A stretch of 64,000 nucleotides of DNA from Thermoplasmata archaeon (lineage in GTDB: Archaea; Thermoplasmatota; Thermoplasmata; Lutacidiplasmatales; UBA184). Position numbers and translations under genes: made by a program. Under the pieces are notes generated by a model. That model did not search any database. It saw only the letters and a program-made list of their open reading frames with translations, and was not told the DNA's origin. Shown here piece by piece: positions 7,436 to 63,222 of this stretch (the stretch's first letter is position 1; each line of letters opens with the position of its first letter). The stretch spans positions 13,227 through 77,226 of the forward strand of contig JAJYEA010000004.1 of assembly GCA_021790425.1 (NCBI GenBank). Reading direction: 5' to 3'.

Positions 7436-8947
7436 TCATGTCGGTGGGCTCGGAAGCCCCACGGACCCGCGCCACCGTTCTCGAAGGCGGCGGCTCGCGG
7501 TGCGGGACAAGGAGGGACGGATCCGGGAAGGGCCCGCTCGGTTCCGTCCCCTTGCAGGGATATCCTGCCCGGAGGCGAGCCCGGTCCCCCATCCGGCGGC
7601 AAGCGCCGCCCCCCAGGCGGTGCCTTCTGTGAGGGGTGAGCGTACGAGGGTGCGACCCGAGAGGTCGGCGATCCGCTGGAGCAGGAAGCGCGAGCGCGAG
7701 AGCCCCCCGTCCACGATCCATGTCGCGGGAGGCCCGTTCCCGTCCGCAGAGAGGGCCTCAAGCACGTCGGCGACTCGGTGCGCGACCCCGTCGAGCGCGG
7801 CTCGCGCGAGTTCCTCCCGTCTCGTGTCGAGGCTCAGTCCCGAGAGATGGCCCCGCTGGTGGGGATCCCAGTAGGGGGCGAAGAGCCCGCCCAACGCCGG
7901 AAGGAACGACTCGTCCCCCGGGCGTGCCCGGGCCGCCCGTCGCTCCATCTCCGGGACGTCCCGGAAGAGGCCGAGGCCGGTCGGACCCAGCCAGTCGAGA
8001 AAGCTCCCCACGGTGCCGACGGATCCCTCGATGCCGATCTCGGGAGCGGCCCCGGAGCGCTGCCAGAGGACCGTGCGGATCATGCCCGACCGGGGCGCGT
8101 CGTACCCGGGCCGGCCGCGGGAGAGGAGGAAGGCACCCGTGCCGAGGGTCATCTTGGCGCGGGCGGGGGTGCCCCACGTGAGCCCGAGGAGGCTCGCCTG
8201 CTGGTCGCCGAGGAGCGACCGTAGCGGGAGGGGTTCGGGGCCCATGCCGGCCACCGAACCAAGGTCCGTCCCGAACGACGGGACGATCTCGGGGAGCCAC
8301 TCTTCCCGGATCCCGAAGTGGTCGAGGGCGGACGGATCGTAGCGACCCCGGTCGAGGTCGAAGAGCAGCGTGCGGGAGGCGTTCGAGGCATCCGTGATCC
8401 AGGCCGGTCCTACCGTGGACCGGCCGAGGAGATCGTGGGCGAGGAGCGCGTCGACCGTCACGAAGCGGAGGCGCCCCGACCGTGCGGCCGCCCGCGCCTC
8501 GGGAGAGTGACGCAGGATCCAGACCATCTTCGGTGCGGAGGGGTAGGTCGTGAGCGGGAGTCCCCCGCTCCTCCAGAGCCGTCGGGCCCAGCCTCCCTGC
8601 GCGTGCTCGCGGGCGATCGCCTCCGTCCGGGTGTCGTGCCAGAGGAGGAGCGGGGAGAGGGGCTTCCCGCTCTCTGCATCCACGGCCACAACGCTCTCGC
8701 GCTGGTTCGTGATCCCCAGTCCCACGACCCGGGCGTTCCGGGCCGCATCCGTCCGGAGCGCCCGGGAGAGGGTGAGCCGGGCGAGACGTAGGGTCTCGCG
8801 GGCATCCTGCTCCGCCCATCCGGGGCTCGGATGCCGGGTGTGCGTGGGGGCGGCCGCCACGGCCACCGGGCGGCCCCCGCGGTCGAAGAGGAGGGTTCGG
8901 ATGGAGGAGGTCCCCGCGTCCAGGCCCGCGAGGAGCTCCCGGGTCAT
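7436..8947 (-). CDS. glpK: Glycerol kinase (FGGY family)
   Basis: Real start MTRELLAGLDAGTSS (ATG 8947, ATGA overlap with upstream stop). Motifs GITNQRES, WHDTRT, TDASNASRTLLFD, GDQQA, KMTLGTGAFL, GLFAPYWD, VDGG. Confidence 0.85.
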   Translation of the reverse strand: MTRELLAGLDAGTSSIRTLLFDRGGRPVAVAAAPTHTRHPSPGWAEQDARETLRLARLTLSRALRTDAARNARVVGLGITNQRESVVAVDAESGKPLSPLLLWHDTRTEAIAREHAQGGWARRLWRSGGLPLTTYPSAPKMVWILRHSPEARAAARSGRLRFVTVDALLAHDLLGRSTVGPAWITDASNASRTLLFDLDRGRYDPSALDHFGIREEWLPEIVPSFGTDLGSVAGMGPEPLPLRSLLGDQQASLLGLTWGTPARAKMTLGTGAFLLSRGRPGYDAPRSGMIRTVLWQRSGAAPEIGIEGSVGTVGSFLDWLGPTGLGLFRDVPEMERRAARARPGDESFLPALGGLFAPYWDPHQRGHLSGLSLDTRREELARAALDGVAHRVADVLEALSADGNGPPATWIVDGGLSRSRFLLQRIADLSGRTLVRSPLTEGTAWGAALAAGWGTGLASGQDIPARGRNRAGPSRIRPSLSRTASRRLRERWRGSVGLPSPPT

Positions 8948-34193: not shown

Positions 34194-37100
34194 ATGGTGG
34201 AGAGGCCCCTTCTCGTCCTGACGACCGCCATCCTTCTGGTGGCCCTGATGACCGTCCCTGCGCCAGCTCTCTCACGGACCGCCCCCACGAACCTCGTCCC
34301 ACCGACGGCGCACGTTCGCTCGCCGATCTCGAGCGGCTCCCCGAAGGTCCTAACGCCGTCCGTCCCCTCTTCCCCTTCCCCCCACCCGGGAACGGTGGAC
34401 GCCTACTACCTCGTGCCTGGTGGCTCGTTCTCCGAGGACCCCGGTGTGGACTATGAAACGGTGGGGATGGAACCGATAGTGAACGTCTTCCAGACGCTCA
34501 TCAGCTACAACGGCTCCCTGGCCGGGCCCTACCCCACGGACTACGTGCCCAACCTCGCGACCTGCGTCCCGGGCTCCAGCCTCTGCACGCAGCTCTACGG
34601 GAACACGCTCCAGAGCGGGGACAACTACACGTTCGTGATCAACCCGAACGCGGAGTTCTACAACCCCTCCACGAAGTCCAGCGCGAACGTCTTCCCGATG
34701 GACGTGCTGTTCAGCTACGTCCGGACCTGCATGTTCGCGGACTTCCCCTACGGCAACCCCGGCTGGATCCAGTGCCAGTCGCTCCTGCCCTTCGGGAGCA
34801 GCTCGTACGACAGCGGCCTCCACTACCCGTACAACAGCACCCCGACCAACATCCTGAACGCCATCCAGATCAACAACACGGCGTTCTGTCCGGTGAGCGC
34901 CACCTACGGGTGCGTGACCTTCGACACCCAGTACAGCGGGAACCACTGGCCGGACTTCCTCGAGTTCGTCGCGGACCCCCTGGGCGGCGGCATCATGGAC
35001 TGCAACTACGCGATGAGCGTGGGCATGTCCTCGGCGATGCCCGGCTTCTCGTGCGGTGCGGCCACGGACCCGACGGGGATCGCCGACACGGCGTGGGACG
35101 GAGTCTCCCTCGGCATGGGTTCCGCCGGATCGGACTACTCGGGAACGAGCGGTCAGCCGGTGGCCAACTGGGCCAACACGCTCCGCTGGTCGATGGTGGG
35201 AAGCGGACCGTACTACCTCTCCTCGCTCATCCCCGGAACCAGCTACACCGTGATGACCAACCCCGACTGGAAGGGCACGACCTGCTCCTGGTCCGGATGC
35301 CTGCCCGCCGCCTTCCCAGTGAATACCGTGAACATGGTTTGGGAGTCGAATGCGAGCGAAGGGGAAGTCGCTCTCGAGAACGGTCAGGCGGACATTGCCA
35401 CGATCCCCGCCGCGAACTTCTCCAGCGTGCTCCTGCCACTGCTCTCCAGCGGAAAGGCGAACCTCACGACTTCGCAGTCGCTCTCGCTGCTATTCACCAA
35501 CTTCGACATGGACTTCAGCACCTCGGGTGCCCAGTCCCTCCTGCCGAACGGAACGACCCTCCAGGCTCCGGGGGACCTCTTGCAGGACCTCGCGTTCCGT
35601 CAATTCCTGACGCACGCCTACCCCTACGCCACGGTCCAGAGTCAGTACAACACCCTCGACGGCGTCCCGACGTACGACCTCTATGGAGGGGCCATCCCCC
35701 AGGGGATGGCCAACTACTACCCGACGAACATCTCCTGGGACGACCAGGACCCCGGTCAGTGGCCGTCGGGATCGCCCGAGAACGCCTCCTACTGGTGGGC
35801 CCAGACCCAGTCCGAGCACGGGATTGCGGCCCAGGCGTGCACGGTAGCGAAGCCCTGCGTCTTCCCGCTCGTGTCGATAAACGGGGCCGCGATCCAGGAC
35901 AAGATCGACTCCGCGTGGGTCTCCGACATCTCGAATCTCTCCGGTGGCGCGGTCGACGCGGTACCGGTGGACATGCCGTTCATCAACCTCGCCATCAACA
36001 GCTGGGCCGCACCCGGTCAGAACCCGATGCCGATGTACGAGCTCGGCTGGGTCCCGGACTACCCTGACCCGACGGACTACGTGAACCCGATCTACATGCC
36101 GGACAACACGTTCACCTACGGAGACGCGCTCTGCGAGGCTCTCGGGATGTTTACCACCCTGGGATGCGCGTCCTCTACCAACCTGGCGGCGGGGAGCTAC
36201 GACAACCCGTTGCCGGCCGGCTGGGTCTGGACCAACGACACCGTAACGACCGCAACGCAGGGGACGGCCTATACCTACATGACGGAACTGCTGGCCCAGG
36301 CGGCCTTCGACATGAACCTGCCGGAGCGCGCCCTGCTCTACAACGCCGCGGAGCATGTGGCCCAGCAGCTCGGGATCTTCGTCCCAAACCCCGGGCAAGA
36401 GGTGGTGGACTGGGTAACGGCGTCGTGGCTGGACACTCCCTCGCTGGATCAGAACCCCCTCGTCGGTGGAGTGGGCGACATGGCCTGGTACACCCTGCGC
36501 TACGTTCAATCGGGCACGCCGTCCGGCCCGACCATCTCCGCCTTCGCGGCCTCGTCCTCCGCGGTGGCGGCCGGCCAGACCGTCTATCTGAACGTCACCG
36601 CCACCGGAGGGACCGGACCCCTGTCCTACGCGTACACGGGCCTTCCCGCCGCCTGCACGAGCGCGAACACGAGCCATCTCCCGTGCGTGTCCACTTCGCT
36701 TGGTGGGCCCTATACGGTCATGGTCACGGTCACGGATTCCGCCCAGCGCGCGGCCGACGCGTTCACGTCCTTCAGCGTGACCCTTCCGGGCGTGGGCCCC
36801 ACGATCTCCTCCTTCACGGCCTCCCCCTCTTCCGCCCCTCTCGGCGGGAAGGTCTACCTCAATGTCACCGTGTCGGGGGGCACGGGACCCCTCTCCTACG
36901 CGTACGCCGGCCTCCCCTCCCCCTGCGCCGGCGCGAACGCGAGCCAGATCATCTGCATCCCGGGTGCCGCCGGAGGTCCGTACACCGTAACCGTGACGGT
37001 CTCGGATTCCGCTACCCCCCGTCACACAGCGACCTCCGCGGCCTCGTTCTCCGTCGCGGGGGGGAGCACGCCCACCATCGGCTCCTTCACGGCCTCGCCC

Positions 37101-53873: not shown

Positions 53874-54359
53874 ATGGGGATTGCCGTGGACCCGGGTCTT
53901 GCCGTGTTGTTCGGATCCGAAGACCGGGTAAGGACGCTGGCCGCCCTAGCCAACGCAGACGCCCCCCTCACAGCCTACCGGGTCGCCACCATAGTGGGGA
54001 TCAAGCCCGCCAATGTCTATCGCGAACTGAAGCGGCTGATTCAGTTCAACGAGGTGGAAAGGGCTCCCACTTTGGACGGGAAGCCCGGCTGGAGGCTGGT
54101 CGATGCCGACGTGACGGCGCTTCTAAGGAAGCGCCTTCGGGTAGTTTGGAGTGAAGATATGTTCCGGGGAAACCGCGACCGCAGCAGGCGAGCGGCCCTC
54201 GCCGTTCGGAGAAGTTCACGGGTTCCACTCGACCTGGCATCCTTTAGTCCAGGCCGCCCCCCTTCCGCGGCGGCCGTGCGCCGACGTCTAGACAAGGATC
54301 GCGTCCTCGCGAAAGCCGGGGCCCGGACTTCCGTTCGTATGAAGCGGGCGAAGATTTGA
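53874..54359 (+). CDS. Winged-helix DNA-binding protein (putative antitoxin/autorepressor)
   Basis: LFGSEDRVRTLAAL...TAYRVATIVGIKPANVYRELKRL HTH; basic C-terminus; atypical codon usage. Confidence 0.75.
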   Translation: MGIAVDPGLAVLFGSEDRVRTLAALANADAPLTAYRVATIVGIKPANVYRELKRLIQFNEVERAPTLDGKPGWRLVDADVTALLRKRLRVVWSEDMFRGNRDRSRRAALAVRRSSRVPLDLASFSPGRPPSAAAVRRRLDKDRVLAKAGARTSVRMKRAKI

Positions 54360-54910
54360 ACGCGGACGAGTTGGGTCGGATCCTCACCAAAGCGAGGGAC
54401 GGAGGGGAGAGGAACCTCTGGCTCGGAGCGCTTCTCGCAAGGGAGACCGCGGTCGACGTCGTGATCGTGGGGGGGTCCGCGATCGAGGTCTACACCAGTG
54501 GGATGTACGTTTCGGGAGATATCGACATCGTGGGGGATCGGGGATCGATCATCTCAGCTCTGGAACAATGGGGGTTCCACCGGGAGGGGCGACTCTGGTC
54601 TCGCCCCGACCTTAGACTTTGGGTGGATCCGGTGGGCCGTGGGTACGCGGGTGATGTCCGAAAGCTCCGGGAGGTGTCGACCCCTTATGGTCCTGTCCGC
54701 CTGGCCTCCGTGGAGGACCTCATCGCAAACCGGTTGATCGAGGTGAAGGCTTGGCCTCGGGCGGGCACGGAGATGTTCGACCAAGCGGTCGTCCTCGCAG
54801 CGGAGTATGGACCTGACGTTGATTGGAACTACGTCACCGGGGTGGCCCGGCGCGAGGAGGCCGATGACTTGGTCCCGGAGTTGCGCCGCAGAATCGCACG
54901 GACCCGATGA
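54356..54910 (+). CDS. Pol-beta-superfamily nucleotidyltransferase (DUF6036/AbiEii-like), putative toxin
   Basis: TTG start overlaps the upstream stop (TTGA); VVIVGGSAIE...SGDIDIV (GG-x-A...DxD), SVEDLIANR. Confidence 0.72.
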   Translation: MNADELGRILTKARDGGERNLWLGALLARETAVDVVIVGGSAIEVYTSGMYVSGDIDIVGDRGSIISALEQWGFHREGRLWSRPDLRLWVDPVGRGYAGDVRKLREVSTPYGPVRLASVEDLIANRLIEVKAWPRAGTEMFDQAVVLAAEYGPDVDWNYVTGVARREEADDLVPELRRRIARTR

Positions 54911-55137: not shown

Positions 55138-56310
55138 TCACTGGGAGTTCATGAGGAACCGCATCCAACGGATCCTCTCTCCCGCATGGTAGGTCCGCCC
55201 GCGCCGGAGGACCGCGAAGCCCTCCGCGGCCAGCAGCGCCGGGCCATGCGCGACTCCCCACGGTAAGGGGTGGATCCTCCCCCCGATCCTTCGAAAGAGC
55301 ACGGTGCTGTCCATCCGGTGGTGGACGGTGACCTCCTCCCCCAGTTCTACGTTCTCGAAGATGCGGAGCTCCTCTCCCACGAGACGCGAGAGCACGTGGA
55401 GCCCGTGCTCGTGGAAGACGGTGAGGGCGGAAGTGATCTGTCCCGGGAGGACCACCACCGGTCGTCCCGACACGAGCGCCACGCCCCCCTGCTTCAGCAC
55501 GTTCACCGTCACCCCCTCGAAGAGCAGGGTCCCCATGCGCTCCAAGACCCTCTTCGTGGCGTCCCTGTTTCCCCTCGATGCGCCACCGATGGTGAAGAGT
55601 AGTTCACATCGGGGGATCGCATCGTGGATGGCTCTGCGAACGGTCTCGGGCTCGTCGGCCACCGCGGGGAGCAAAGTCGGACGCGCGAAGTGAAGGAGTG
55701 CCCGGACCACCGGTCCGATCGAGTCGGGGGTCCCGCCCTCGCGCGAACCCTTCGCGCCCCTGAGCTCGCTCCCAATGGGGAGGATCGCCACCCGAGGATC
55801 GTGGACCCGCGCTTCCGACCGTCCCTCGGCGATGAGGGCGCTGAGATGGTAGGGCGTCACCTGCTGCCCCCGGTCGAGGAGCAGGCTCCCTCGCGCGAGG
55901 AACTCCCCCCGGGGAACGACGTCCTGTCCCCGCCGGACCCCGGTGGCGACGTACAGTCGGCCGTCTTCGACCCGGGCGGCTTCGACCCGGACCACCGCGT
56001 TGGCGCCCCGAGGGAGCGGGTCTCCGGTGCTGATCGGAACCGCGTGGCCTTTCCTGAGGGCGCTTCCCTTGGGTCCACGGCCGAAGGCCTGTCGTTCCAA
56101 CAGGTAGGGCTCCGGCGCAGGGCTCCCCCACGCGTTCACCGCGTACCCGTCCATCGCCGAGGAATCCCTCACGGGGAGATTCCTACGAGCCCGCACTTCC
56201 CTCGCGGAGTAACGTCCCACGGCTTCCTCGCAGGGAACGGAGCGGACGGGGGCCCGGCGGAGCCGGGCGGCATCGATGCGTCGTCGCGCCTCCTCTAGGG
56301 GAACTAGCAT
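55138..56310 (-). CDS. moeA: Molybdopterin molybdenumtransferase
   Basis: SAMDGYAV, ISTGDPLPRGANAVVRVE, PIGSEL, TIGGASRG, LPGQITSAL. Confidence 0.85.
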   Translation of the reverse strand: MLVPLEEARRRIDAARLRRAPVRSVPCEEAVGRYSAREVRARRNLPVRDSSAMDGYAVNAWGSPAPEPYLLERQAFGRGPKGSALRKGHAVPISTGDPLPRGANAVVRVEAARVEDGRLYVATGVRRGQDVVPRGEFLARGSLLLDRGQQVTPYHLSALIAEGRSEARVHDPRVAILPIGSELRGAKGSREGGTPDSIGPVVRALLHFARPTLLPAVADEPETVRRAIHDAIPRCELLFTIGGASRGNRDATKRVLERMGTLLFEGVTVNVLKQGGVALVSGRPVVVLPGQITSALTVFHEHGLHVLSRLVGEELRIFENVELGEEVTVHHRMDSTVLFRRIGGRIHPLPWGVAHGPALLAAEGFAVLRRGRTYHAGERIRWMRFLMNSQ

Positions 56311-56345: not shown

Positions 56346-56813
56346 ATGCCGATGATCATCCAAGTCGTGGGGGCGAGCGGTTCCGGGAAGACGTTCGTGC
56401 TCGAGCGGGCCATCCGTCGTCTCCGCGCCGAGGGCTACCGGGTGGCCGCGCTGAAGCACTCCCACCACCCGATCGACGTCCGGGGCAAGGACACCGACCG
56501 GCTGCGGCGGAGCGGCGCGAATCCCGTCCTCTTCGTCTCCCGTGGCTGGGCGCTCTTCGCCTCCGGGGAACCCTGGGACCTCCTGCCGACGCTCCCGGTC
56601 GATGTGGTGCTCGTGGAGGGCTACCACCGGCGACGTCTCTCCCGCCATCGCTACCGGGTGGAGCGTCCGGGCGACGCACCTGAGGTGGTGGAGGAGATCC
56701 TCCGCGTGGTCCGAGGGGCCATCCCTCATCCCCCCGTTCATCCCCGGCCCCCGTCGGGGAAGCCGGCCTTGAGGCGGGCGCGCCGCGCCCGTCGCTCCGG
56801 GTCCTCCCGGTGA
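56346..56813 (+). CDS. mobB: Molybdopterin-guanine dinucleotide biosynthesis protein B
   Basis: VVGASGSGKT, GYRVAALKHSHH, GKDTDR, VLVEGY. Confidence 0.88.
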   Translation: MPMIIQVVGASGSGKTFVLERAIRRLRAEGYRVAALKHSHHPIDVRGKDTDRLRRSGANPVLFVSRGWALFASGEPWDLLPTLPVDVVLVEGYHRRRLSRHRYRVERPGDAPEVVEEILRVVRGAIPHPPVHPRPPSGKPALRRARRARRSGSSR

Positions 56814-57652
56814 CCCTCGGGCATCACACCGTAAGCATCCGTGAGGCAGTGATACTCGAGGAGGGGGATCCCGAAGTCCCGGTACACCTCGGCCTCCCGT
56901 CCGAGGGAGTCCAGGGCCTCCTCCGGACGGCCGCGGGCCACGGCCTCCCTCGCCTCCCAGAAGGCGCGTGGCGCATCGGGGGGCACGGAACAAGTTTGTC
57001 GGGGCTCTCCCGTCGCGGATGGACCCATGGGCATCGACGCGATCTTCCGCGAGCGCTCGAGGTCCTCCCGTGTGTTCACGTTCGCGAAGGTGAGCGGGGT
57101 CCCTCCGAGCTGCTCGGTCGGGACGATGCCGGGATGGGAGACCGATCGAATGAGATCGGTCGAGCGGCGGCGCGGGAAAGCGGCTGCCGCAGGCGACTCG
57201 ACGAGGCGTCGCCCGGCCCCCTTGCGAACCCAAAGGACGAGGGGCTCCACCCTCCCGTCCCTGCCCCACGGACACGCCGCGTCGAACCCGGCAGCGCGCG
57301 TCGTCGCTTCGAGCGCGGCGAGCACCTTGCCCTCCAGCCACGGCATGTCGCCCGCCACGAAGAGCAGATCGCTCGTTCTCTCGACCGCCAAGGTGGCCAG
57401 GATCCCTCCGAGCGGCCCGGTCTCCGACCGCCCCGGCGGGTCGAGGATGATCCGCGTCCCGGAAGGCAGGATCGGACGTAGTCGCTCGGCGTGCTCCTCG
57501 GACTCCACGGAGACGGCCACCGTGGCCGTCACCTCCTTCAGGTGGCGGAGGACGTGGGCGAGCAAGGGGGTCCCGTCGAGCAGGGCGGCGAGCTTGTCCT
57601 TCCCGAACCGCTGCGACCGGCCCCCGGCCAGAGCAACCCCGAGTGTCGTCAT
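56738..57652 (-). CDS. mobA: Molybdenum cofactor guanylyltransferase with about 90-aa C-terminal extension
   Basis: LAGGRSQRFGKDK, GPLGGI, VAGDMP, VEPL, FANVNTREDL. Confidence 0.85.
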   Translation of the reverse strand: MTTLGVALAGGRSQRFGKDKLAALLDGTPLLAHVLRHLKEVTATVAVSVESEEHAERLRPILPSGTRIILDPPGRSETGPLGGILATLAVERTSDLLFVAGDMPWLEGKVLAALEATTRAAGFDAACPWGRDGRVEPLVLWVRKGAGRRLVESPAAAAFPRRRSTDLIRSVSHPGIVPTEQLGGTPLTFANVNTREDLERSRKIASMPMGPSATGEPRQTCSVPPDAPRAFWEAREAVARGRPEEALDSLGREAEVYRDFGIPLLEYHCLTDAYGVMPEGHREDPERRARRARLKAGFPDGGRG

Positions 57653-57837
57653 CGGTAGACCCCTCCCGGGTGGCGCCGGAGCCCCTTCCCGGTTCCCGGC
57701 GGCGCCCCCCGGTCCATGGGACCTTCCAACACCTCCGTCCTAAAAAGGGGCCCGCGGCGCCTCAGGAGTCAGCAAGGTCGGTGAGGCGAAGAGGAGCGCC
57801 GGGGGAGGGCGGACGTCCGGGAACCTCCGGCGATGCA

Positions 57838-58326
57838 TCAACTCGCGAGCATCACTGCGGCGAAGAGCACCGCCACGGTGAGGGCCGCGGAGATCCCCGT
57901 GAGCGCGCGATCGAACGACCTCCACTTCTGGAGGCTGGGGTTGCGGGCCCCCCGCTCGGAGCGGCGACGGATTTCGGGCCCGAGCACAAAGCTGTGGAAG
58001 GCGCTGACCAGGACCAGGAAGAGGACGAGCAGGAGCTTCACCACGAGCCACGGGGTAGACGAGACTCCCGCCATGCCGGTGGGCCCGAGGAACCAGGTGA
58101 GGTTGTAGAGCCCCGTCGCGATGGTGACGCCGAGCGCCCCCCACATCATCCACCCCAAGGAGCGGGCGATCCGGGACATCGTGCGGGCATAGAGGGCCGG
58201 GTCGTCCCCGAGGGAGGAGCGGACCGCCACGGCCACGATGCCGAGGGCCACGGTGCCTCCCACCCAGATCGAGGCTCCGAGGATGTGGACGAAGAGCACG
58301 ACGTCGGCGAGGGTGATCACGGTCAT
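57838..58326 (-). CDS. CopD-like four-TM membrane protein
   Basis: LFVHILGASIWVGG, ATGLYN, VVKLLLV...SAFHSF; ATG 58326. Confidence 0.7.
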   Translation of the reverse strand: MTVITLADVVLFVHILGASIWVGGTVALGIVAVAVRSSLGDDPALYARTMSRIARSLGWMMWGALGVTIATGLYNLTWFLGPTGMAGVSSTPWLVVKLLLVLFLVLVSAFHSFVLGPEIRRRSERGARNPSLQKWRSFDRALTGISAALTVAVLFAAVMLAS

Positions 58327-58419
58327 CGAACCAGGGCCTTCGGGTCCCGCTCCCTCCGTGCGTCCGCTCCCATGGTGTTCCCGGGCACGAGCAAAGCGGG
58401 CACACCGGATGGGAGGGCC

Positions 58420-58434
58420 ACCGAACGGTTTCGG
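58420..58434 (+). promoter_or_regulatory. Palindromic site ACCGAACGGTTTCGG upstream of the hemerythrin gene
   Basis: CCGAA-N4-TTCGG; identical copy at 61023-61037; TTACC begins 11 nt after the site. Confidence 0.75.
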
Positions 58435-58486
58435 GGCCCACCCCTTACCCGTGGGGGCGCTGGAGCGCACCGAGGTACAACGGGAG

Positions 58487-58957
58487 ATGTCGGAATCCAC
58501 GGAACGCTCGATCGAGGAGGTCCTGAAGGACGATCATGACGAGATGGAGGAGACGTGGGAGCGTGCCCGGGAGATGCGGGCCCGGGGAGATCCCCAGGCC
58601 ACCGAGGTGTACGAGCAGTTCATCCATGCCCTCCAGGAGCACATCTCGGTCGAGGAGCAGGAGCTCTTCCCCCACAGTCTCAAGACCCGGGGGACCGATG
58701 TGCGCCCGCTCGTGGAGCAGCTCCAGCGGGAGCACATGGTGATCCAGACGGTGCTCGGCAAGATCCACGGCGACCTCACCTCGGGACACGCGGTCTCCGA
58801 GGAGGACGAGGACGCGCTACGGAACCTGCTCGGGATCCACAACGCCCGCGAGGAGGGCTTCTACTACCCCGACTTCGACGGTCGGTTCTCCCAGACCCAG
58901 GAGGGCCGGGAACTCTCCCGGAACGTCCTGGCAGGATGCCACTGCGGGAAGCACTGA
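58487..58957 (+). CDS. Hemerythrin (HHE cation-binding) domain protein
   Basis: DDH, EHISVEEQELFP, REHMVI, HNAREEGFYYP. Confidence 0.85.
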   Translation: MSESTERSIEEVLKDDHDEMEETWERAREMRARGDPQATEVYEQFIHALQEHISVEEQELFPHSLKTRGTDVRPLVEQLQREHMVIQTVLGKIHGDLTSGHAVSEEDEDALRNLLGIHNAREEGFYYPDFDGRFSQTQEGRELSRNVLAGCHCGKH

Positions 58958-58975
58958 GCTCGGACGGATCCCGCC

Positions 58976-59566
58976 TCAGCGGCCCCACCGCGCCTTGGCG
59001 ATGGTCGAGTACGCGGCGAGGTCAAAGGAGGAGAACAGCACGAAGCGTACCTCCCGGATCGAGGGGTGCCGCGCCACCCCCTCCTCGACCGTGGCGATCG
59101 CCACGGGTCCCGCCCGGTCGATCGGATACCCATAGGCTCCGGTGCTGATGGAGGGGAAGGCGACGGAGCCGATTCCGTGCTCCTCCGCCACCTCGAGCGA
59201 CCGCCGATAGCAGCGGCGGAGGATCTCCTCCTCCCCGGCACCGCCTCCCTGCCAGACGGGCCCGACCGTGTGGATGACGTACCGGGCGCGGAGCCGGCCT
59301 CCCGAGGTCGCGGCCGCCTCGCCCGGGGGCATCCCCCGGGGCCAGCGGGCCTCCCGCAGGGAACGGCACTCCGCCAGGATCGCGGGACCTCCCCGCGCGT
59401 GGATGGCGCCATCGACACCCCCACCGCCGAGGAGCGAGGAGTTGGCCGCGTTCACGATCGCGTCGGTGTCCTGGTCGGTGATGTCGCCGCGGAGGACACG
59501 GACGGTGGCTTTCGACACGAGGTAGGCCGCGGCTTCGTCCAAGGGATCTCCCCAACCGGAACGCAT
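58976..59566 (-). CDS. Macrodomain protein (O-acetyl-ADP-ribose deacetylase, YmdB-like)
   Basis: GDIT...DAIVNAANSSLLGGGGVDGAIH, VIHTVGPVW, AFPSISTGAYGYP. Confidence 0.92.
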   Translation of the reverse strand: MRSGWGDPLDEAAAYLVSKATVRVLRGDITDQDTDAIVNAANSSLLGGGGVDGAIHARGGPAILAECRSLREARWPRGMPPGEAAATSGGRLRARYVIHTVGPVWQGGGAGEEEILRRCYRRSLEVAEEHGIGSVAFPSISTGAYGYPIDRAGPVAIATVEEGVARHPSIREVRFVLFSSFDLAAYSTIAKARWGR

Positions 59567-59626
59567 TCTCCGGAGGCTCTTACCTCCGTCCCCCGACGGG
59601 GGCATCCCCCTTTCATAGCCTCTCGG

Positions 59627-60244
59627 ATGTCCCGGGCCGTGCGGCGTTGCGCATGGGCCTCCGGGGATGACGTCCGGATGCAGGAGTACCACGACCGGGA
59701 GTGGGGCGTCCCGGTCCACGACGACCGTCGCCACTTCGAGTTCCTCGTGCTGGAGGGCGCCCAGGCCGGGCTGAGCTGGTCGCTCATCCTCCAACGTCGT
59801 CCCGCCTATGCCCGCGCCTTCAGCGGCTTCGACCCCGCGAGCGTGGCCCGCTATTCGGCCGCCCGGGTCGACCGGCTGGTCGAGGACGCCTCGATCATCC
59901 GGAACCGCCGCAAGATCGAGTCCGCGGTGGGGAACGCCCGCCGGTTCCTGGCCGTCCAGCGGGAGTTCGGGAGCTTCGACGACTACGGCTGGCGGTTCGT
60001 CGGGGGACGTCCCCGGCAGAATCGCTGGAAGTCCCCCGGGGACATCCCGGTCACCACGCCGGAGTCGGATGCGTTCAGCGAGGACCTCCGGCGCAGGGGA
60101 TTCCGCTTCGTGGGGTCCACGGTGATCTACGCCCACATGCAGGCGGTGGGGATGGTGAACGACCATCTCGTCGGCTGCGACCGCTATCGCGAGGTGGCGG
60201 GACTCCGTTCCCCAGGGGGAAGCCGTCCGTTCCCCGCGCCGTGA
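59627..60244 (+). CDS. tag: DNA-3-methyladenine glycosylase I
   Basis: RCAW, YHDREWG, FEFLVLEGAQAGLSW, IIRNRRKI, GFRFVGSTVIYAHMQAVGMVNDH..C. Confidence 0.93.
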   Translation: MSRAVRRCAWASGDDVRMQEYHDREWGVPVHDDRRHFEFLVLEGAQAGLSWSLILQRRPAYARAFSGFDPASVARYSAARVDRLVEDASIIRNRRKIESAVGNARRFLAVQREFGSFDDYGWRFVGGRPRQNRWKSPGDIPVTTPESDAFSEDLRRRGFRFVGSTVIYAHMQAVGMVNDHLVGCDRYREVAGLRSPGGSRPFPAP

Positions 60245-60263
60245 GCCTCCCCAGGGGCAGGGG

Positions 60264-60932
60264 TCAGAGCCTCGTGGAGGTTTGGACCACGTCCTTCAGG
60301 ATCTTCCGCTCGACGTTGGCGAGGGACTCCGAGAGCGTGGACTTCGCCACCCCGAGCTCCTCGGCCAGCCCGGTCAGGGAGATCCCGCGGGGGACCTCGT
60401 AGTATCCCCGCGTCATCGCGATCAGGAAGATCTCGCGCTGGCGGGGGGTCAGCACGGAGAGCTCGTCCGCCTCGCCTCCGTGCCGCAAGGACTCGATCGT
60501 GACGCCCGGCGTCTCCTTGGCGAGGAACCGGTAGAGCTCCTTCACCTTCGCTTCGGAAGCGACGATCACCCAGGTGGCGGCCCCCTGGCGGATGAAGAAC
60601 GGAAAGCGGGGCATGAGGTGGACCTGCGAGAGCCCGCGCAGGAGCGTGGCGGCGGTGTGCACGATGCGGAACTCCGCGCTGTTCTTCCGCACTTCGACCA
60701 GCTCGACCTCCCGCACCCCCTTGGACCTCCGGAGGGCCTCTCCGAGCTCGCGCGCGTTCTCCCCGTGGACGCGCAACTCGACCGTGCTCTCGTTGCCCTT
60801 CGCCATCACGTGGCCGAGGACCTCGATCGAGATCTCAGGATGCTCCCGGGTGATCACACCCATCCAGGCCCCCGTGGAGAGCGGCACCCGGAGCCGGCAG
60901 ATCGTCGTCGTGGGCTCCGAGGGCTTCGCCAT
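60264..60932 (-). CDS. Bacterio-opsin-activator-type (HTH_10) transcriptional regulator
   Basis: C-terminal LTPRQREIFLIAMTRGYYEVPRGISLTGLAEELGVAKSTLSESLANVERKI. Confidence 0.88.
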   Translation of the reverse strand: MAKPSEPTTTICRLRVPLSTGAWMGVITREHPEISIEVLGHVMAKGNESTVELRVHGENARELGEALRRSKGVREVELVEVRKNSAEFRIVHTAATLLRGLSQVHLMPRFPFFIRQGAATWVIVASEAKVKELYRFLAKETPGVTIESLRHGGEADELSVLTPRQREIFLIAMTRGYYEVPRGISLTGLAEELGVAKSTLSESLANVERKILKDVVQTSTRL

Positions 60933-60934
60933 GC

Positions 60935-60963
60935 CGGTCGGTGCACGACCGTAAGCGCTTATA
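60935..60963 (-). promoter_or_regulatory. Promoter of the HTH regulator: TATAAG (60958-60963) plus inverted repeat CGGTCG-N5-CGACCG over the likely start site
   Basis: TATA 26-31 nt before ATG 60932; palindrome TAAGCGCTTA at 60952-60961; inverted repeat at 60935-60951. Confidence 0.5.
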
Positions 60964-61022
60964 CGATGCAGCCGGCCGGTCGCAGCCGGGCCCGCGGGCG
61001 GCCAGACGGGAGTAGAACGTCG

Positions 61023-61037
61023 ACCGAACGGTTTCGG
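61023..61037 (+). promoter_or_regulatory. Palindromic site ACCGAACGGTTTCGG upstream of the DUF2249 operon
   Basis: Identical to 58420-58434; TTACC begins 10 nt after the site. Confidence 0.75.
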
Positions 61038-61082
61038 CCTCGGTGTTTACCGGAGTTGCGTCGTGGAGGCTCCGAGTGCCCC

Positions 61083-61367
61083 ATGACCGAACCGAAGCCG
61101 ACCGACGTGCTGGTGATCGATGTGCGGCCGATCCCCCCTGCCCAGAAGCATCCGGCGATCTTCGGGGCCTTCGAACGGCTCGCGGAGGGAGAGAGCTTCC
61201 TCCTGGTCAACGACCACGACCCCAAACCCCTCTACTACCAGTTCCTGGCGGAGCGCAACGGCACCTTCTCCTGGACGTACGTCGAGAGCGGTCCCCGCAT
61301 CTGGAGGGTGCGGATCGGCAAGACGGCCCCGGCCCCGGGGCCGAAGATCCCGTTGGCATCCCCGTGA
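61083..61367 (+). CDS. DUF2249 domain protein
   Basis: IDVRPIPPAQKHPAIF, LVNDHDPKPLYYQF, WTYVESGPRIWRVRI. Confidence 0.88.
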   Translation: MTEPKPTDVLVIDVRPIPPAQKHPAIFGAFERLAEGESFLLVNDHDPKPLYYQFLAERNGTFSWTYVESGPRIWRVRIGKTAPAPGPKIPLASP

Positions 61368-62497
61368 CCACGGCCCGCGACGGGCCTGGCATCCTCCGGG
61401 CCCGTCTCCCCGTGGTGGCGTTGATCGCCTTCGCAACCTTCCTGGGTCTCTGGGCCGGCCTGGTCCTCCTCGGCTGGTCCCTCCCCGTGGTCTCGGTCGG
61501 ATTCCCCGACTGGCACGGGCCGCTCATGGTGAACGGGGTCCTGGCGACGCTCATCGTTCTCGAGCGCGCGGTCGCGCTGCGGCGCGCCTGGGCGTTTGCC
61601 GCCCCCGTGGTTTCTGGGGGAGGCACCCTCGCTCTGCTGACCCCGCTCGGTCCGATGCTGGGGGGCGTGTTCTGGATCGTGAGCGGCCTCCTCCTGACCG
61701 CGGTCTTCCTCGAGATCCATCGACGGCAACCGGGGTTCCACAGCGCCGTGCTCACCACCGCGGCGGCGTTGCTCTTCTTCGGCAACCTCACCTGGTGGGC
61801 CACGGGCGACGTCCCCGCGATGGTGCTCTGGTGGGTCTCCTTCCTCGTCCTGCTCATCGCGGGAGAGCGACTCGAGCTCTCGCGCGTCTTTCGTCTCACG
61901 CTGGCGAAGAGGGTCGCCTTTGGGGTCGGGGCCGCGATGCTCGTGGTGGGGCCGGTCCTCAGCACCGTGACCCTCGTTCCGGCGATAGCCACGGAGGCGG
62001 CCGGGCTCGTGACCCTGGGTGTGTGGCTCCTCCTCTACGATGTGGCCCGGGCGAACCTCCCGCTCCCGGGACGCCCTCGGTTCCTCGGGCTCTGCCTCGT
62101 CTCCGGCTACGCGTGGATCGTCTTCGCGGGAGCGCTCGCCCTCGGGACCGGGGCGAGTTTGCCCGGCCTCGTCTACGACGCCTTCCTGCACGCGATCTTC
62201 ATCGGCTTCGTCTTCACCATGATCATGGCCCACGCGCTGGTGATCCTGCAGGCGTTCCTGGGCCGAAGCGTGCCCTTCACGAGAGCCTTCTACGTTCCGC
62301 TCGTCCTGATCGAGGGGACGCTGGCGCTCCGGGTGGCCTCCGACCTAGCGGGATGGGATGCCCTCCGGATGTGGGCCGGGCTGCTGAACGTCGTGGCCAT
62401 CCTCTCCTTCGTGCTCGTCCTCGGGGGGAACTTGGCGCGGGACCGTCTGCGGTGGATCCAGGACCTCTTCCACCCCGATTTCATGAACGTCCGGTGA
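61364..62497 (+). CDS. NnrS-like polytopic membrane protein
   Basis: GTGA-coupled to DUF2249; HGPLMVNGVLATLIVLERAVAL, IAGERLELSR, YDAFLHAIFIGFVFTMIMAHA; about 11-12 TM helices. Confidence 0.68.
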   Translation: MTTARDGPGILRARLPVVALIAFATFLGLWAGLVLLGWSLPVVSVGFPDWHGPLMVNGVLATLIVLERAVALRRAWAFAAPVVSGGGTLALLTPLGPMLGGVFWIVSGLLLTAVFLEIHRRQPGFHSAVLTTAAALLFFGNLTWWATGDVPAMVLWWVSFLVLLIAGERLELSRVFRLTLAKRVAFGVGAAMLVVGPVLSTVTLVPAIATEAAGLVTLGVWLLLYDVARANLPLPGRPRFLGLCLVSGYAWIVFAGALALGTGASLPGLVYDAFLHAIFIGFVFTMIMAHALVILQAFLGRSVPFTRAFYVPLVLIEGTLALRVASDLAGWDALRMWAGLLNVVAILSFVLVLGGNLARDRLRWIQDLFHPDFMNVR

Positions 62498-62555
62498 GCG
62501 CGGCCCCACCGGTCAGGGATATCTGGCGCGGCCGCTGTACCCGGGCACCACGTTC

Positions 62556-62810
62556 ATGCCCCGGCTGAGAGTCCTGCTCTTCGCGACGGCCCGCGAGGCG
62601 GTGGGCCAGAGCGAGCTCGAGGTCCCGTACCGTCGGGGGCAGACGCTCGCGGAGGTCCTCGCCGAGGTCGTCGCGGCCCACCCTCGCCTCCGCCCCCACC
62701 TCCGTCACCGGCTGGCCCTCGACGGGGAGTTTCTGGAGCAACCGGCGTCCGCGGTGATCCTCTCCTCCCAGAAGGAGGTCGCCATCCTGCCGCCGTTCTC
62801 CGGAGGGTGA
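62556..62810 (+). CDS. moaD: Molybdopterin synthase sulfur carrier (MoaD/ThiS/SAMP-like)
   Basis: VLLFATAREAVG...EVAILPPFSGG, C-terminal GG. Confidence 0.9.
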   Translation: MPRLRVLLFATAREAVGQSELEVPYRRGQTLAEVLAEVVAAHPRLRPHLRHRLALDGEFLEQPASAVILSSQKEVAILPPFSGG

Positions 62811-62817
62811 CGCCGGA

Positions 62818-63222
62818 ATGATCCCCTCTGCCCTCATCCGGCTCACCAAGAGCCCCATCCGCCCCGAGACGTACCGGAAGACCCTGGAGGACCCGGGGAG
62901 CGGAGGGGTCGCGCTCTTCGAGGGCCGCGTCCGAGACGACCCGGGCCACCACGCGACCCGTCTCTACTACGAGGCCTACTCGCCCCTCGCGCTCCGCGAA
63001 CTCGAGCGGCTCTCCCGGCAGGCCGCGACCCGGTTCGGGGCCCGGCGGATCGTGATCGTCCACCGGCTGGGCCACCTGCGGACCGGGGAGATCGCGGTCT
63101 TCATCGGGGTGGCCACCGCCCACCGCACGAAGGCCTTCGCCGCCTGCCGATTCCTGATCGACGAGCTCAAGCGCCGGGTCCCGATCTGGAAGACCCGGGA
63201 AGAGAGCCGCACCAAGCGTTGA
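62818..63222 (+). CDS. moaE: Molybdopterin synthase catalytic subunit
   Basis: GGVALFEGRVRD, LYYEAY, HRLGHLRTGE, HRTKAF, LKRRVPIWK. Confidence 0.93.
   Translation: MIPSALIRLTKSPIRPETYRKTLEDPGSGGVALFEGRVRDDPGHHATRLYYEAYSPLALRELERLSRQAATRFGARRIVIVHRLGHLRTGEIAVFIGVATAHRTKAFAACRFLIDELKRRVPIWKTREESRTKR

Follow-up and report, generated by a model that had tools for sequence, protein, structure and literature searches.

Regulation of denitrification and of nitric oxide (NO) handling in archaea is, to our knowledge, poorly understood. Two regulators with an HTH_10 (helix-turn-helix, HTH) DNA-binding domain provide reference points: Bat, an activator that acts from a site just upstream of the transcription factor B recognition element (BRE) and TATA box, the upstream activating sequence (UAS) of the bop promoter, and NarO, which regulates nar, nirK and dms in Haloferax volcanii. 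NarO has been described as an oxygen sensor (PMC11218638). A palindrome, CGAA-X4-TTCG, is present in promoters of the H. volcanii denitrification genes and of ahbD, and in the account given in PMC5746218, which cites Hattori et al. 2016, it is essential for anaerobic activation of nirK. In Haloferax mediterranei, CGAAYATDKTYG is common to the nar, nirK, nor and nos promoters, the distance from motif to start is 66-79 nt for nir, nor and nos, and point mutations in the palindrome reduce nor and nos promoter activity (PMC10062603). According to the same authors H. mediterranei keeps the motif but has no NarO, and NarO therefore cannot be the binder there. An RNA-seq study found the motif before induced DUF2249 genes, a cyanoglobin gene and E6P09_00735, an HTH_10 “bacterioopsin activator” gene within the nirK-nor cluster that its authors proposed as the regulator of the motif (PMC11218638). 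The Haloferax palindrome thus has mutational support and no proven binder. Here we analyze a 64,000-nucleotide stretch of contig JAJYEA010000004.1 of a Thermoplasmata archaeon (hereafter the window), in which the same palindrome stands twice next to a gene for an HTH_10 protein of 222 amino acid residues.

The 15 bases ACCGAACGGTTTCGG occur as exact copies at positions 58420-58434 (site 1) and 61023-61037 (site 2), just as an earlier note made from the letters of the window had stated; a third copy is absent from the window even when two mismatches are allowed. Their core is a 5-4-5 palindrome, CCGAA-N4-TTCGG, which reads CCGAA-CGGT-TTCGG in both copies. Against the two strict 14-mers observed, dinucleotide-preserving shuffles of the window contain 0.09 on average, and none of 100 such shuffles gave two matches; frequent random occurrence, which the earlier note had named as grounds for dropping its proposal, is therefore not seen within the window. 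A looser palindrome with one mismatch gave five matches against 3.5 expected. When the window was scanned with a weight matrix built from related sites, site 1 scored 21.5 bits and site 2 20.3 bits, with the runner-up at 9.2 bits. Identity between the two sites is confined to the 15 bases and their flanks are unrelated, which excludes a duplicated segment.

Both sites lie in divergent intergenic regions. Site 1, a predicted operator or UAS, is centered between a gene for a CopD-like membrane protein (57838-58326, minus strand; Pfam CopD, E 2.5e-10) and a hemerythrin gene (58487-58957, plus strand; HHE cation-binding domain PF01814, E 4e-10). Site 2 separates the regulator gene (60264-60932, minus strand; HTH_10 PF04967, E 1e-17) from a DUF2249 gene (61083-61367, plus strand; PF10006, E 2.8e-30). 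The three gene identities given in the earlier note, hemerythrin, DUF2249 and HTH_10, were borne out by Pfam, as was the divergence of the HTH_10 gene from site 2; site 1, with the CopD-like gene opposite, proved to be in a divergent region as well. The start codon of a gene for a 377-residue polytopic membrane protein (61364-62497, plus strand) overlaps the DUF2249 stop codon, and from this overlap the two genes are predicted to be co-transcribed. We put at roughly 70% the probability that the two palindromes are the sites of a dimer of the adjacent HTH_10 regulator, which would activate the divergent promoters, with a likely role in NO or anoxia. The pairing of regulator and operator, though not proven, is well supported by the comparison of related loci.

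Homologues of the window regulator form a small family, and their GTDB records are metagenome-assembled genomes (MAGs) labeled Thermoplasmata archaeon. A search of genome contigs with the window regulator alone returned only a Marsarchaeota HTH fragment, and the family loci were collected by searching with an alignment of closer homologues (A2), an alignment that included haloarchaeal sequences being too diverse. Genes in these loci were called with a log-odds GC2/GC3 caller, which reproduces Pfam-verified genes; calling by the nearest open reading frame (ORF) gave wrong frames in high-GC DNA and a first GC3-based caller missed genes. In the three close relatives (loci L002, L005 and L007), whose regulators are 53-61% identical to that of the window, gene order is kept: on one side, the gene pair for DUF2249 and the membrane protein is divergent from a gene for a 408-418-residue membrane protein, with HTH_10 behind it; on the opposite side, DUF488 and hemerythrin genes diverge from a ferredoxin gene that is followed, in some loci after one for an FNR-like reductase, by CopD. 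The palindrome is kept in both orthologous intergenic regions and the surrounding sequence has diverged; the sites read CCGAAACGGTTCGG and GCGAAACGGTTCGG in L002, CCGAAACGGTTCGG and ACGAACCGGTTCGG in L005, and ACCGAAACGTTTCGGT, a perfect 16-mer, in L007. The orthologous position of site 1 is also occupied in L017, and that of site 2, upstream of DUF2249, is occupied in L002, L005, L018 and L030 as well as in the haloarchaeal loci L013 and L015. Relatives with 29-43% identical regulators have one to five motif copies within 4 kb. Phylogenetic footprinting, proposed earlier as a check, thus finds the motif kept in orthologous promoters of loci whose regulators are 29-61% identical.

The motif is specific to this regulator subfamily. 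Strict sites number 38 in 215 kb of 26 non-redundant family loci, which were fetched via the regulator, where shuffling predicts 0.6, whereas the 246 kb covered around 32 loci with other HTH_10 paralogs contain none; at least one site is found in 23 of the 26 family loci and in 0 of the 32 others (Fisher p = 3e-13). All but one of 55 sites are intergenic by the gene caller (54/55), and RefSeq annotation places the exception between genes as well. The converse search, in which loci were fetched via the gene for the 377-residue membrane protein, found the motif in 15 of 18 Thermoplasmata loci and in one of 62 bacterial ones (p = 2e-12). Some Thermoplasmata target loci are on contigs other than that of the regulator in the same MAG (L130 versus L017, L176 versus L024), which implies control of a regulon in trans. 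The weight matrix gives the consensus CCGAA[A/C]-[C/G][G/C]-[G/T]TTCGG, of which only the center and flanks are informative because the arms were fixed by site selection. The comparison thus marks the palindrome as a conserved cis-regulatory element, CCGAA[A/C]-N2-[G/T]TTCGG.

Two further observations concern the sites of the family at large. In the most distant Thermoplasmata homologues (29-30% identity) sites are found as tandem pairs whose starts are 17-18 bp apart (L035, 2873/2891; L037, 3640/3658; L039, 3317/3334 and 4604/4621), an arrangement that suggests two dimers side by side. Two records labeled “bacterium”, JAKBKR010000054.1 (L019/L129) and DAIDCO010000018.1 (L034/L135), contain a regulator, motif and gene order of Thermoplasmata type, and the label is probably wrong.

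Aligned on the motif, the promoters show a TATA-like box toward each target, its start 7-9 nt past the edge of the motif. In the hemerythrin promoter the putative box is CTTACC (58444-58449, plus strand), which aligns with the boxes of relatives as a GC-degenerate counterpart of their CTTTAG/CTATAG; at the same motif offset the hemerythrin promoters read CCTTTAGT in L005 and L007, CCTATAGT in L002 and, GC-degenerate, CCCTTACC in the window. In the DUF2249 promoter the predicted box TTTACC (61046-61051, plus strand) follows site 2 by 8 nt and recurs in L002 (same offset) and L030 (7 nt), with TTTAGC in L005 and CTTAGC in L018. Ferredoxin promoters have CCTTAAG or CCATAAGG, and the box on the CopD side of site 1 (CCATCCGG, 58405-58412) is weak. 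The weak TTACC box to which the earlier note drew attention (58445-58449 in the hemerythrin promoter, 10 nt from site 1) is thus conserved as TTTACC/TTTAGC at a fixed distance from the motif. The distances given there to TTACC boxes and start codons were right within 1-2 nt: the hemerythrin ATG at 58487 is 52 nt after site 1 and the DUF2249 ATG at 61083 is 45 nt after site 2. In close relatives the motif stands 37-50 nt before the start codon (37-52 nt with the window included), and in haloarchaea, where mRNAs are mostly leaderless, 36-47 nt before it. With its edge 7-9 bp from the TATA-like box, the site abuts the BRE and would span about -52 to -38 of the expected transcription start. A site just upstream of BRE/TATA is in the classical position of an archaeal activator, and from the center a single site can act on two divergent promoters. 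The proposal that a transcription factor site lies just upstream of BRE/TATA therefore gains from both lines of comparison, conservation in orthologous promoters and co-occurrence with the HTH_10 subfamily in both search directions.

The regulator gene has a candidate TATA box of its own, GTATAAG (60958-60964, minus strand), 25 nt before its ATG, a spacing that implies a leaderless mRNA. Relatives have the regulator gene in second place in the operon of the 418-residue protein, which has a motif promoter, and autoregulation is likely there.

The genes directly behind the sites make up a consistent set. DUF2249, usually followed by a gene for a 370-residue membrane protein, is the commonest (10 sites), followed by the regulator or its operon (nine) and hemerythrins (seven sites for the main cluster and two for a second one); ferredoxin, the 418-residue membrane protein, a FeS_assembly_P/HesB fusion protein and a GT4 glycosyltransferase account for four sites each. 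Further genes behind sites encode a 290-residue hemerythrin-like protein, an FNR-like reductase and CopD. NarG adjoins the hemerythrin target only in L009 and L011, which are distant relatives. An unusual target is found in L012, where two sites (7304 and 7598) precede a gene (7658-8863) for a 401-residue low-complexity protein rich in Ala, Ser and Thr with an N-terminal hydrophobic segment.

The haloarchaeal system matches that of the window in half-sites, spacing and the flanking C and G (CCGAAC-N2-GTTCGG) and in distance to the start codon, and DUF2249 genes are targets in both (PMC11218638). Its regulator is homologous to the window protein over the whole length and is likewise divergent from DUF2249. 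A further shared trait is that the promoter or operon of the regulator often includes a site. In tblastn, haloarchaeal plasmid genes are 29-35% identical to the window regulator and cover at least 91% of it, and in BLASTP a haloarchaeal homologue is 31% identical over 206 residues (E 2e-29). These homologues are located in nirK/qNor/halocyanin/DUF2249 clusters, divergent from DUF2249 with CCGAACNNGTTCGG in between (the arrangement of L013 and L015); carriers of such a nirK/nor-cluster regulator include Haloprofundus pMHR1-3, which has eight core copies in 16.6 kb, Halorussus halophilus and Halogeometricum pHBOR02. Of 54 further haloarchaeal loci with an orthologue, 47 have a core site ahead of the regulator gene, at a gap that peaks at 36-44 nt. 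The comparison covers plasmid and GTDB loci; a search with a published primer sequence for the H. mediterranei nor locus gave no match. The two systems also differ. The window belongs to the class Thermoplasmata, a non-halophilic lineage here with about 70% G+C; the motif center is CG/GG-rich in the window versus AT-rich in haloarchaea; the window regulator has a predicted promoter of its own; and the targets are accessory and stress genes (hemerythrin, DUF2249 with the membrane protein, ferredoxin/CopD, Fe-S assembly factor) rather than nirK, nor and nos. The link between regulator and motif in haloarchaea is itself a proposal.

Based on these sequence relationships, the window system is best placed in the haloarchaeal nirK/nor-cluster regulator family, as a representative from Thermoplasmata, and not regarded as an orthologue of NarO or Bat. 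It is therefore not new in kind: it extends a partly characterized haloarchaeal pair of motif and regulator to Thermoplasmata, with a regulon that, judged by gene content, would consist of accessory genes of the NO/anoxia type. The suggestion that the pair was undescribed in this lineage accordingly holds for the class Thermoplasmata and for the content of the regulon. It does not hold for the palindrome, already published for Haloferax (PMC5746218, PMC10062603), or for the regulator, since an HTH_10 protein had been proposed for the nirK-nor cluster (PMC11218638) and the window protein is its full-length homologue.

Comparison shows no close kinship to Bat or NarO, which the earlier note had named. 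NarO shares with the window protein a C-terminal HTH_10 domain and a role in anaerobic and denitrification control, but only residues 161-217, the 57-residue HTH_10 domain, align (37% identity), and nothing does in the N-terminal 150 residues. Bat has an HTH_10 domain and an associated BAT domain like that of the window protein, but its PAS/GAF domains have no counterpart there, and its target genes and motif differ. By Pfam, the 222-residue regulator has a C-terminal HTH_10 domain (residues 161-213; score 63.8 bits, cut-off 23.1), a BAT match of 24.9 bits that falls short of the 25.8-bit cut-off, and no PAS or GAF domain. An AlphaFold2 model (pLDDT 85.9) shows an N-terminal alpha/beta domain (residues 9-151) with two beta-alpha-beta-beta-like units and a three-helix HTH (163-220). 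In fold searches of this model the HTH resembled sigma-70 region 4, and the N-terminal domain matched only Thermoplasma Ta1207, weakly (TM 0.42); a sequence search of solved structures returned no homologue of the regulator. The window protein has a single cysteine, Cys12, which was considered as a sensor and rejected, as it is conserved only in closer Thermoplasmata and absent from the 29-30% identical members and from haloarchaea. Sensing via a ligand at the N-terminal domain, or via a partner such as DUF2249, are possibilities.

What we observed is motif conservation, subfamily specificity, promoter geometry and homology; that the regulator binds, in which direction it acts and to what signal it responds (probably NO or anoxia) is inference. 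A dimer of the 222-residue regulator would bind each palindrome in the middle of a bidirectional promoter and, abutting the BRE, would help to recruit transcription factor B (TFB) and the TATA-binding protein (TBP) and thereby activate transcription. Site 1 would control hemerythrin and probably the CopD-like gene, and site 2 DUF2249 with the 377-residue membrane protein; in relatives the regulon would further include ferredoxin/FNR, the Fe-S assembly factor, other hemerythrins and the operon of the regulator itself. The likely role is a response to NO, nitrosative stress or anoxia, since the set corresponds to a module that in bacteria adjoins genes for Rrf2 (NsrR-type) regulators and NO reductase.

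Several points weigh against this interpretation. The family loci were fetched through the regulator, and its presence in them is by construction. No metal- or NO-binding residues and no Cys/His set are conserved across the family, and the recognition helix, AKSTLSESL, is near the general HTH_10 consensus and does not by itself explain specificity. The distance of 58 nt between site 2 and the regulator's own TATA box makes autoregulation in the window doubtful. Genes for nitrite, nitric oxide or nitrate reductase (nirK, nor, nar), and nos, were not seen among the first 25 of the 64 Pfam families of the window. A literature search found no proof of binding for the window protein or any member of its subfamily; co-occurrence supports the claim that the palindrome is the HTH_10 protein's own site, while physical binding is unproven in any lineage.

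The strongest alternative, which we nevertheless consider unlikely, is that the same protein binds the palindrome as a repressor, blocking access of TFB/TBP to the BRE until a signal arrives. The geometry leaves room for this, and so counts against activation: the motif edge, 7-9 bp from the TATA-like box, touches the expected BRE. In some haloarchaeal loci (L078-L086, L090) another CGAA-N4-TTCG core stands 1-9 nt ahead of the regulator start, about 35 nt downstream of the first, a repressor-type position that would suit autorepression. Rrf2/NsrR-type regulators, which adjoin the counterpart module in bacteria, are repressors. However, the site is upstream of BRE/TATA and not over the TATA box or start site, mutation of the palindrome reduces and does not raise nor and nos activity in H. 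mediterranei (PMC10062603), and the motif is reported, in the account cited above, as essential for nirK activation in H. volcanii (PMC5746218).

Activation by the HTH_10 protein itself would also be wrong if a factor encoded elsewhere, for example of NarO type or with another HTH, bound the palindrome and the HTH_10 gene were just a member of the regulon. Many family regulators do stand behind a motif site and are thus targets, and in literature cited by PMC10062603 the H. volcanii motif was first attributed to NarO, which counts against the adjacent regulator as binder. In addition, CGAATCCGTTCG is found about 40 nt upstream of narO (on pHV3 of H. volcanii, GCGAATCCGTTCGC at 36110-36123 of locus L071), and narO may itself be a target of the factor that reads the palindrome. 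We regard a different binder as even less probable than repression: H. mediterranei has the motif without NarO (PMC10062603), NarO has only the HTH domain in common with the window protein, and the HTH_10 subfamily alone among regulators accompanies the motif in two archaeal classes and in both search directions. Neither the loci of the 32 other HTH_10 paralogs nor the bacterial loci with the same targets and Rrf2 regulators contain the motif.

There is very little to be said for the palindrome as an RNA or DNA hairpin serving as a terminator, attenuator or processing site. Site 1 is nested in a longer GC-rich inverted repeat (58411-58443, GGGAGGGCC...GGCCCACCCC) with a folding energy of -22.9 kcal/mol (z = -3.4), but this extension is absent from site 2, where folding is ordinary (z = -0.55), and from the orthologous sites, so that the unusual folding of site 1 is due to its non-conserved GC-rich flanks. 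There is no T-run, both regions are divergent with no upstream gene running into either site, changes in one arm at orthologous sites (GCGAA, ACGAA) are uncompensated in the other, an Rfam scan of 57000-63000 gave no match, and sites upstream of the predicted TATA boxes are probably not transcribed. Chance occurrence of the two copies in a 70% G+C genome is negligible: looser forms are not rare, as the single-mismatch count shows, but the strict 14-mer is, and conservation in dozens of orthologous promoters refutes chance.

The target genes have a bacterial counterpart. Bacterial homologues are 42-44% identical for DUF2249, 36-39% for the membrane protein (E 1e-47) and 43% for the Fe-S assembly factor, and they are found in clusters of genes for the Fe-S assembly factor, DUF2249, membrane protein, an Rrf2 regulator and hemerythrin that adjoin norB or NnrS, for example on Cupriavidus necator pHG1 and a Paraburkholderia plasmid. 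The likeness to bacterial NsrR (Rrf2) regulons of nitrosative stress lies in this homologous target module, including hemerythrins, next to norB/NnrS; the difference is that the Rrf2 regulator is unrelated to the HTH_10 protein of the window and that CCGAA-N4-TTCGG was not found in the bacterial loci with Rrf2 regulators and homologous target genes. By analogy, the relationship to NsrR regulons appears to be functional, a non-orthologous replacement of the regulator between domains and not membership. Gene content points to a nitrosative-stress or anaerobic accessory module.

The 377-residue membrane protein matched no Pfam or NCBIfam model. Identity with NnrS was considered and rejected (Pfam NnrS at E 4.9 in only one of eight family members; hhalign probability 0.07 against an annotated NnrS), and the protein represents an uncharacterized family distinct from NnrS. 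The 418-residue membrane protein encoded upstream of the regulator in relatives had no plasmid matches, and comparison showed it to be unrelated both to the 377-residue family and to a COX1-like haloarchaeal neighbor of 459 residues. The latter, annotated as “hypothetical protein” directly downstream of the regulator on Haloprofundus pMHR1-3 (L013, 8758-10137), is a partial match to COX1, heme-copper oxidase subunit I (E 1.4e-13), and its gene is preceded by a core site at 8707.

A broader proposal, which we offer tentatively and with less than even confidence, is that the HTH_10 subfamily and CCGAA-N4-TTCGG constitute an ancient NO/anoxia regulon of Thermoplasmata and Halobacteria that takes the place of NsrR, with DUF2249 as a possible signal-sensing partner. 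DUF2249 could have this role because it is always linked and the regulator has no obvious sensor residues, and by analogy with DrpA and DrpB, DUF2249 proteins of Thermus proposed, in work cited by PMC11218638, as nitrate sensors. If the proposal is true, the Thermoplasmata loci would identify the long-sought reader of the haloarchaeal denitrification palindrome. That the motif accompanies one HTH_10 subfamily with a BAT domain in a further archaeal class too, with the same offset and the same DUF2249 neighbor, is independent comparative evidence for the reader and strengthens the assignment of the motif to this subfamily. The comparison also defines a module (DUF2249, the 377-residue membrane protein, hemerythrin and the Fe-S assembly factor) that is shared with bacteria, where regulators are of Rrf2/NsrR type, and suggests a nitrosative-stress response in uncultured Thermoplasmata of soil and sediment. 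The two promoters of the window offer a compact test system for binding or in vitro transcription.

The regulon island of the window is flanked on both sides by genes of molybdenum cofactor synthesis: MoeA (55138-56310, minus strand), MobB (56346-56813, plus) and MobA-like (56738-57652, minus) upstream, and MoaD (62556-62810, plus) and MoaE (62818-63222, plus) downstream. Haloarchaeal clusters also have a motif site before a MoaD/ThiS gene (L013, 10503) and before a “pterin cluster protein” gene (L014); no strong motif site is present in front of the window MoaD. Denitrification enzyme genes (nirK, nor, nos) do not adjoin the two window sites. The window hemerythrin has 47-49% identical orthologues behind the same motif. 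The CopD-like protein is 59% identical to CopD of L002 and L005, and in relatives the CopD gene closes a ferredoxin-(FNR)-CopD operon; the window gene is probably the second target of site 1. Between the hemerythrin and regulator genes, genes for a Macro-domain protein (58976 to ~59540, minus strand) and 3-methyladenine glycosylase I (~59636-60244, plus strand) occupy the place of DUF488 in close relatives (58976-60244), and the gene for the 408-418-residue membrane protein found upstream of the regulator in relatives is missing from the window. The remainder of the window contains housekeeping genes, among them those for Kdp, ArgJ, an ammonium transporter and PKD/Kelch surface proteins. Two adjacent ORFs at 53874-54910 have no Pfam match, and the first of them (161 residues) looks winged-helix-like by eye. 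The MobB and MobA-like genes are convergent, and their 3' ends overlap by 76 nt (56738-56813) if the ORF ends are as called.

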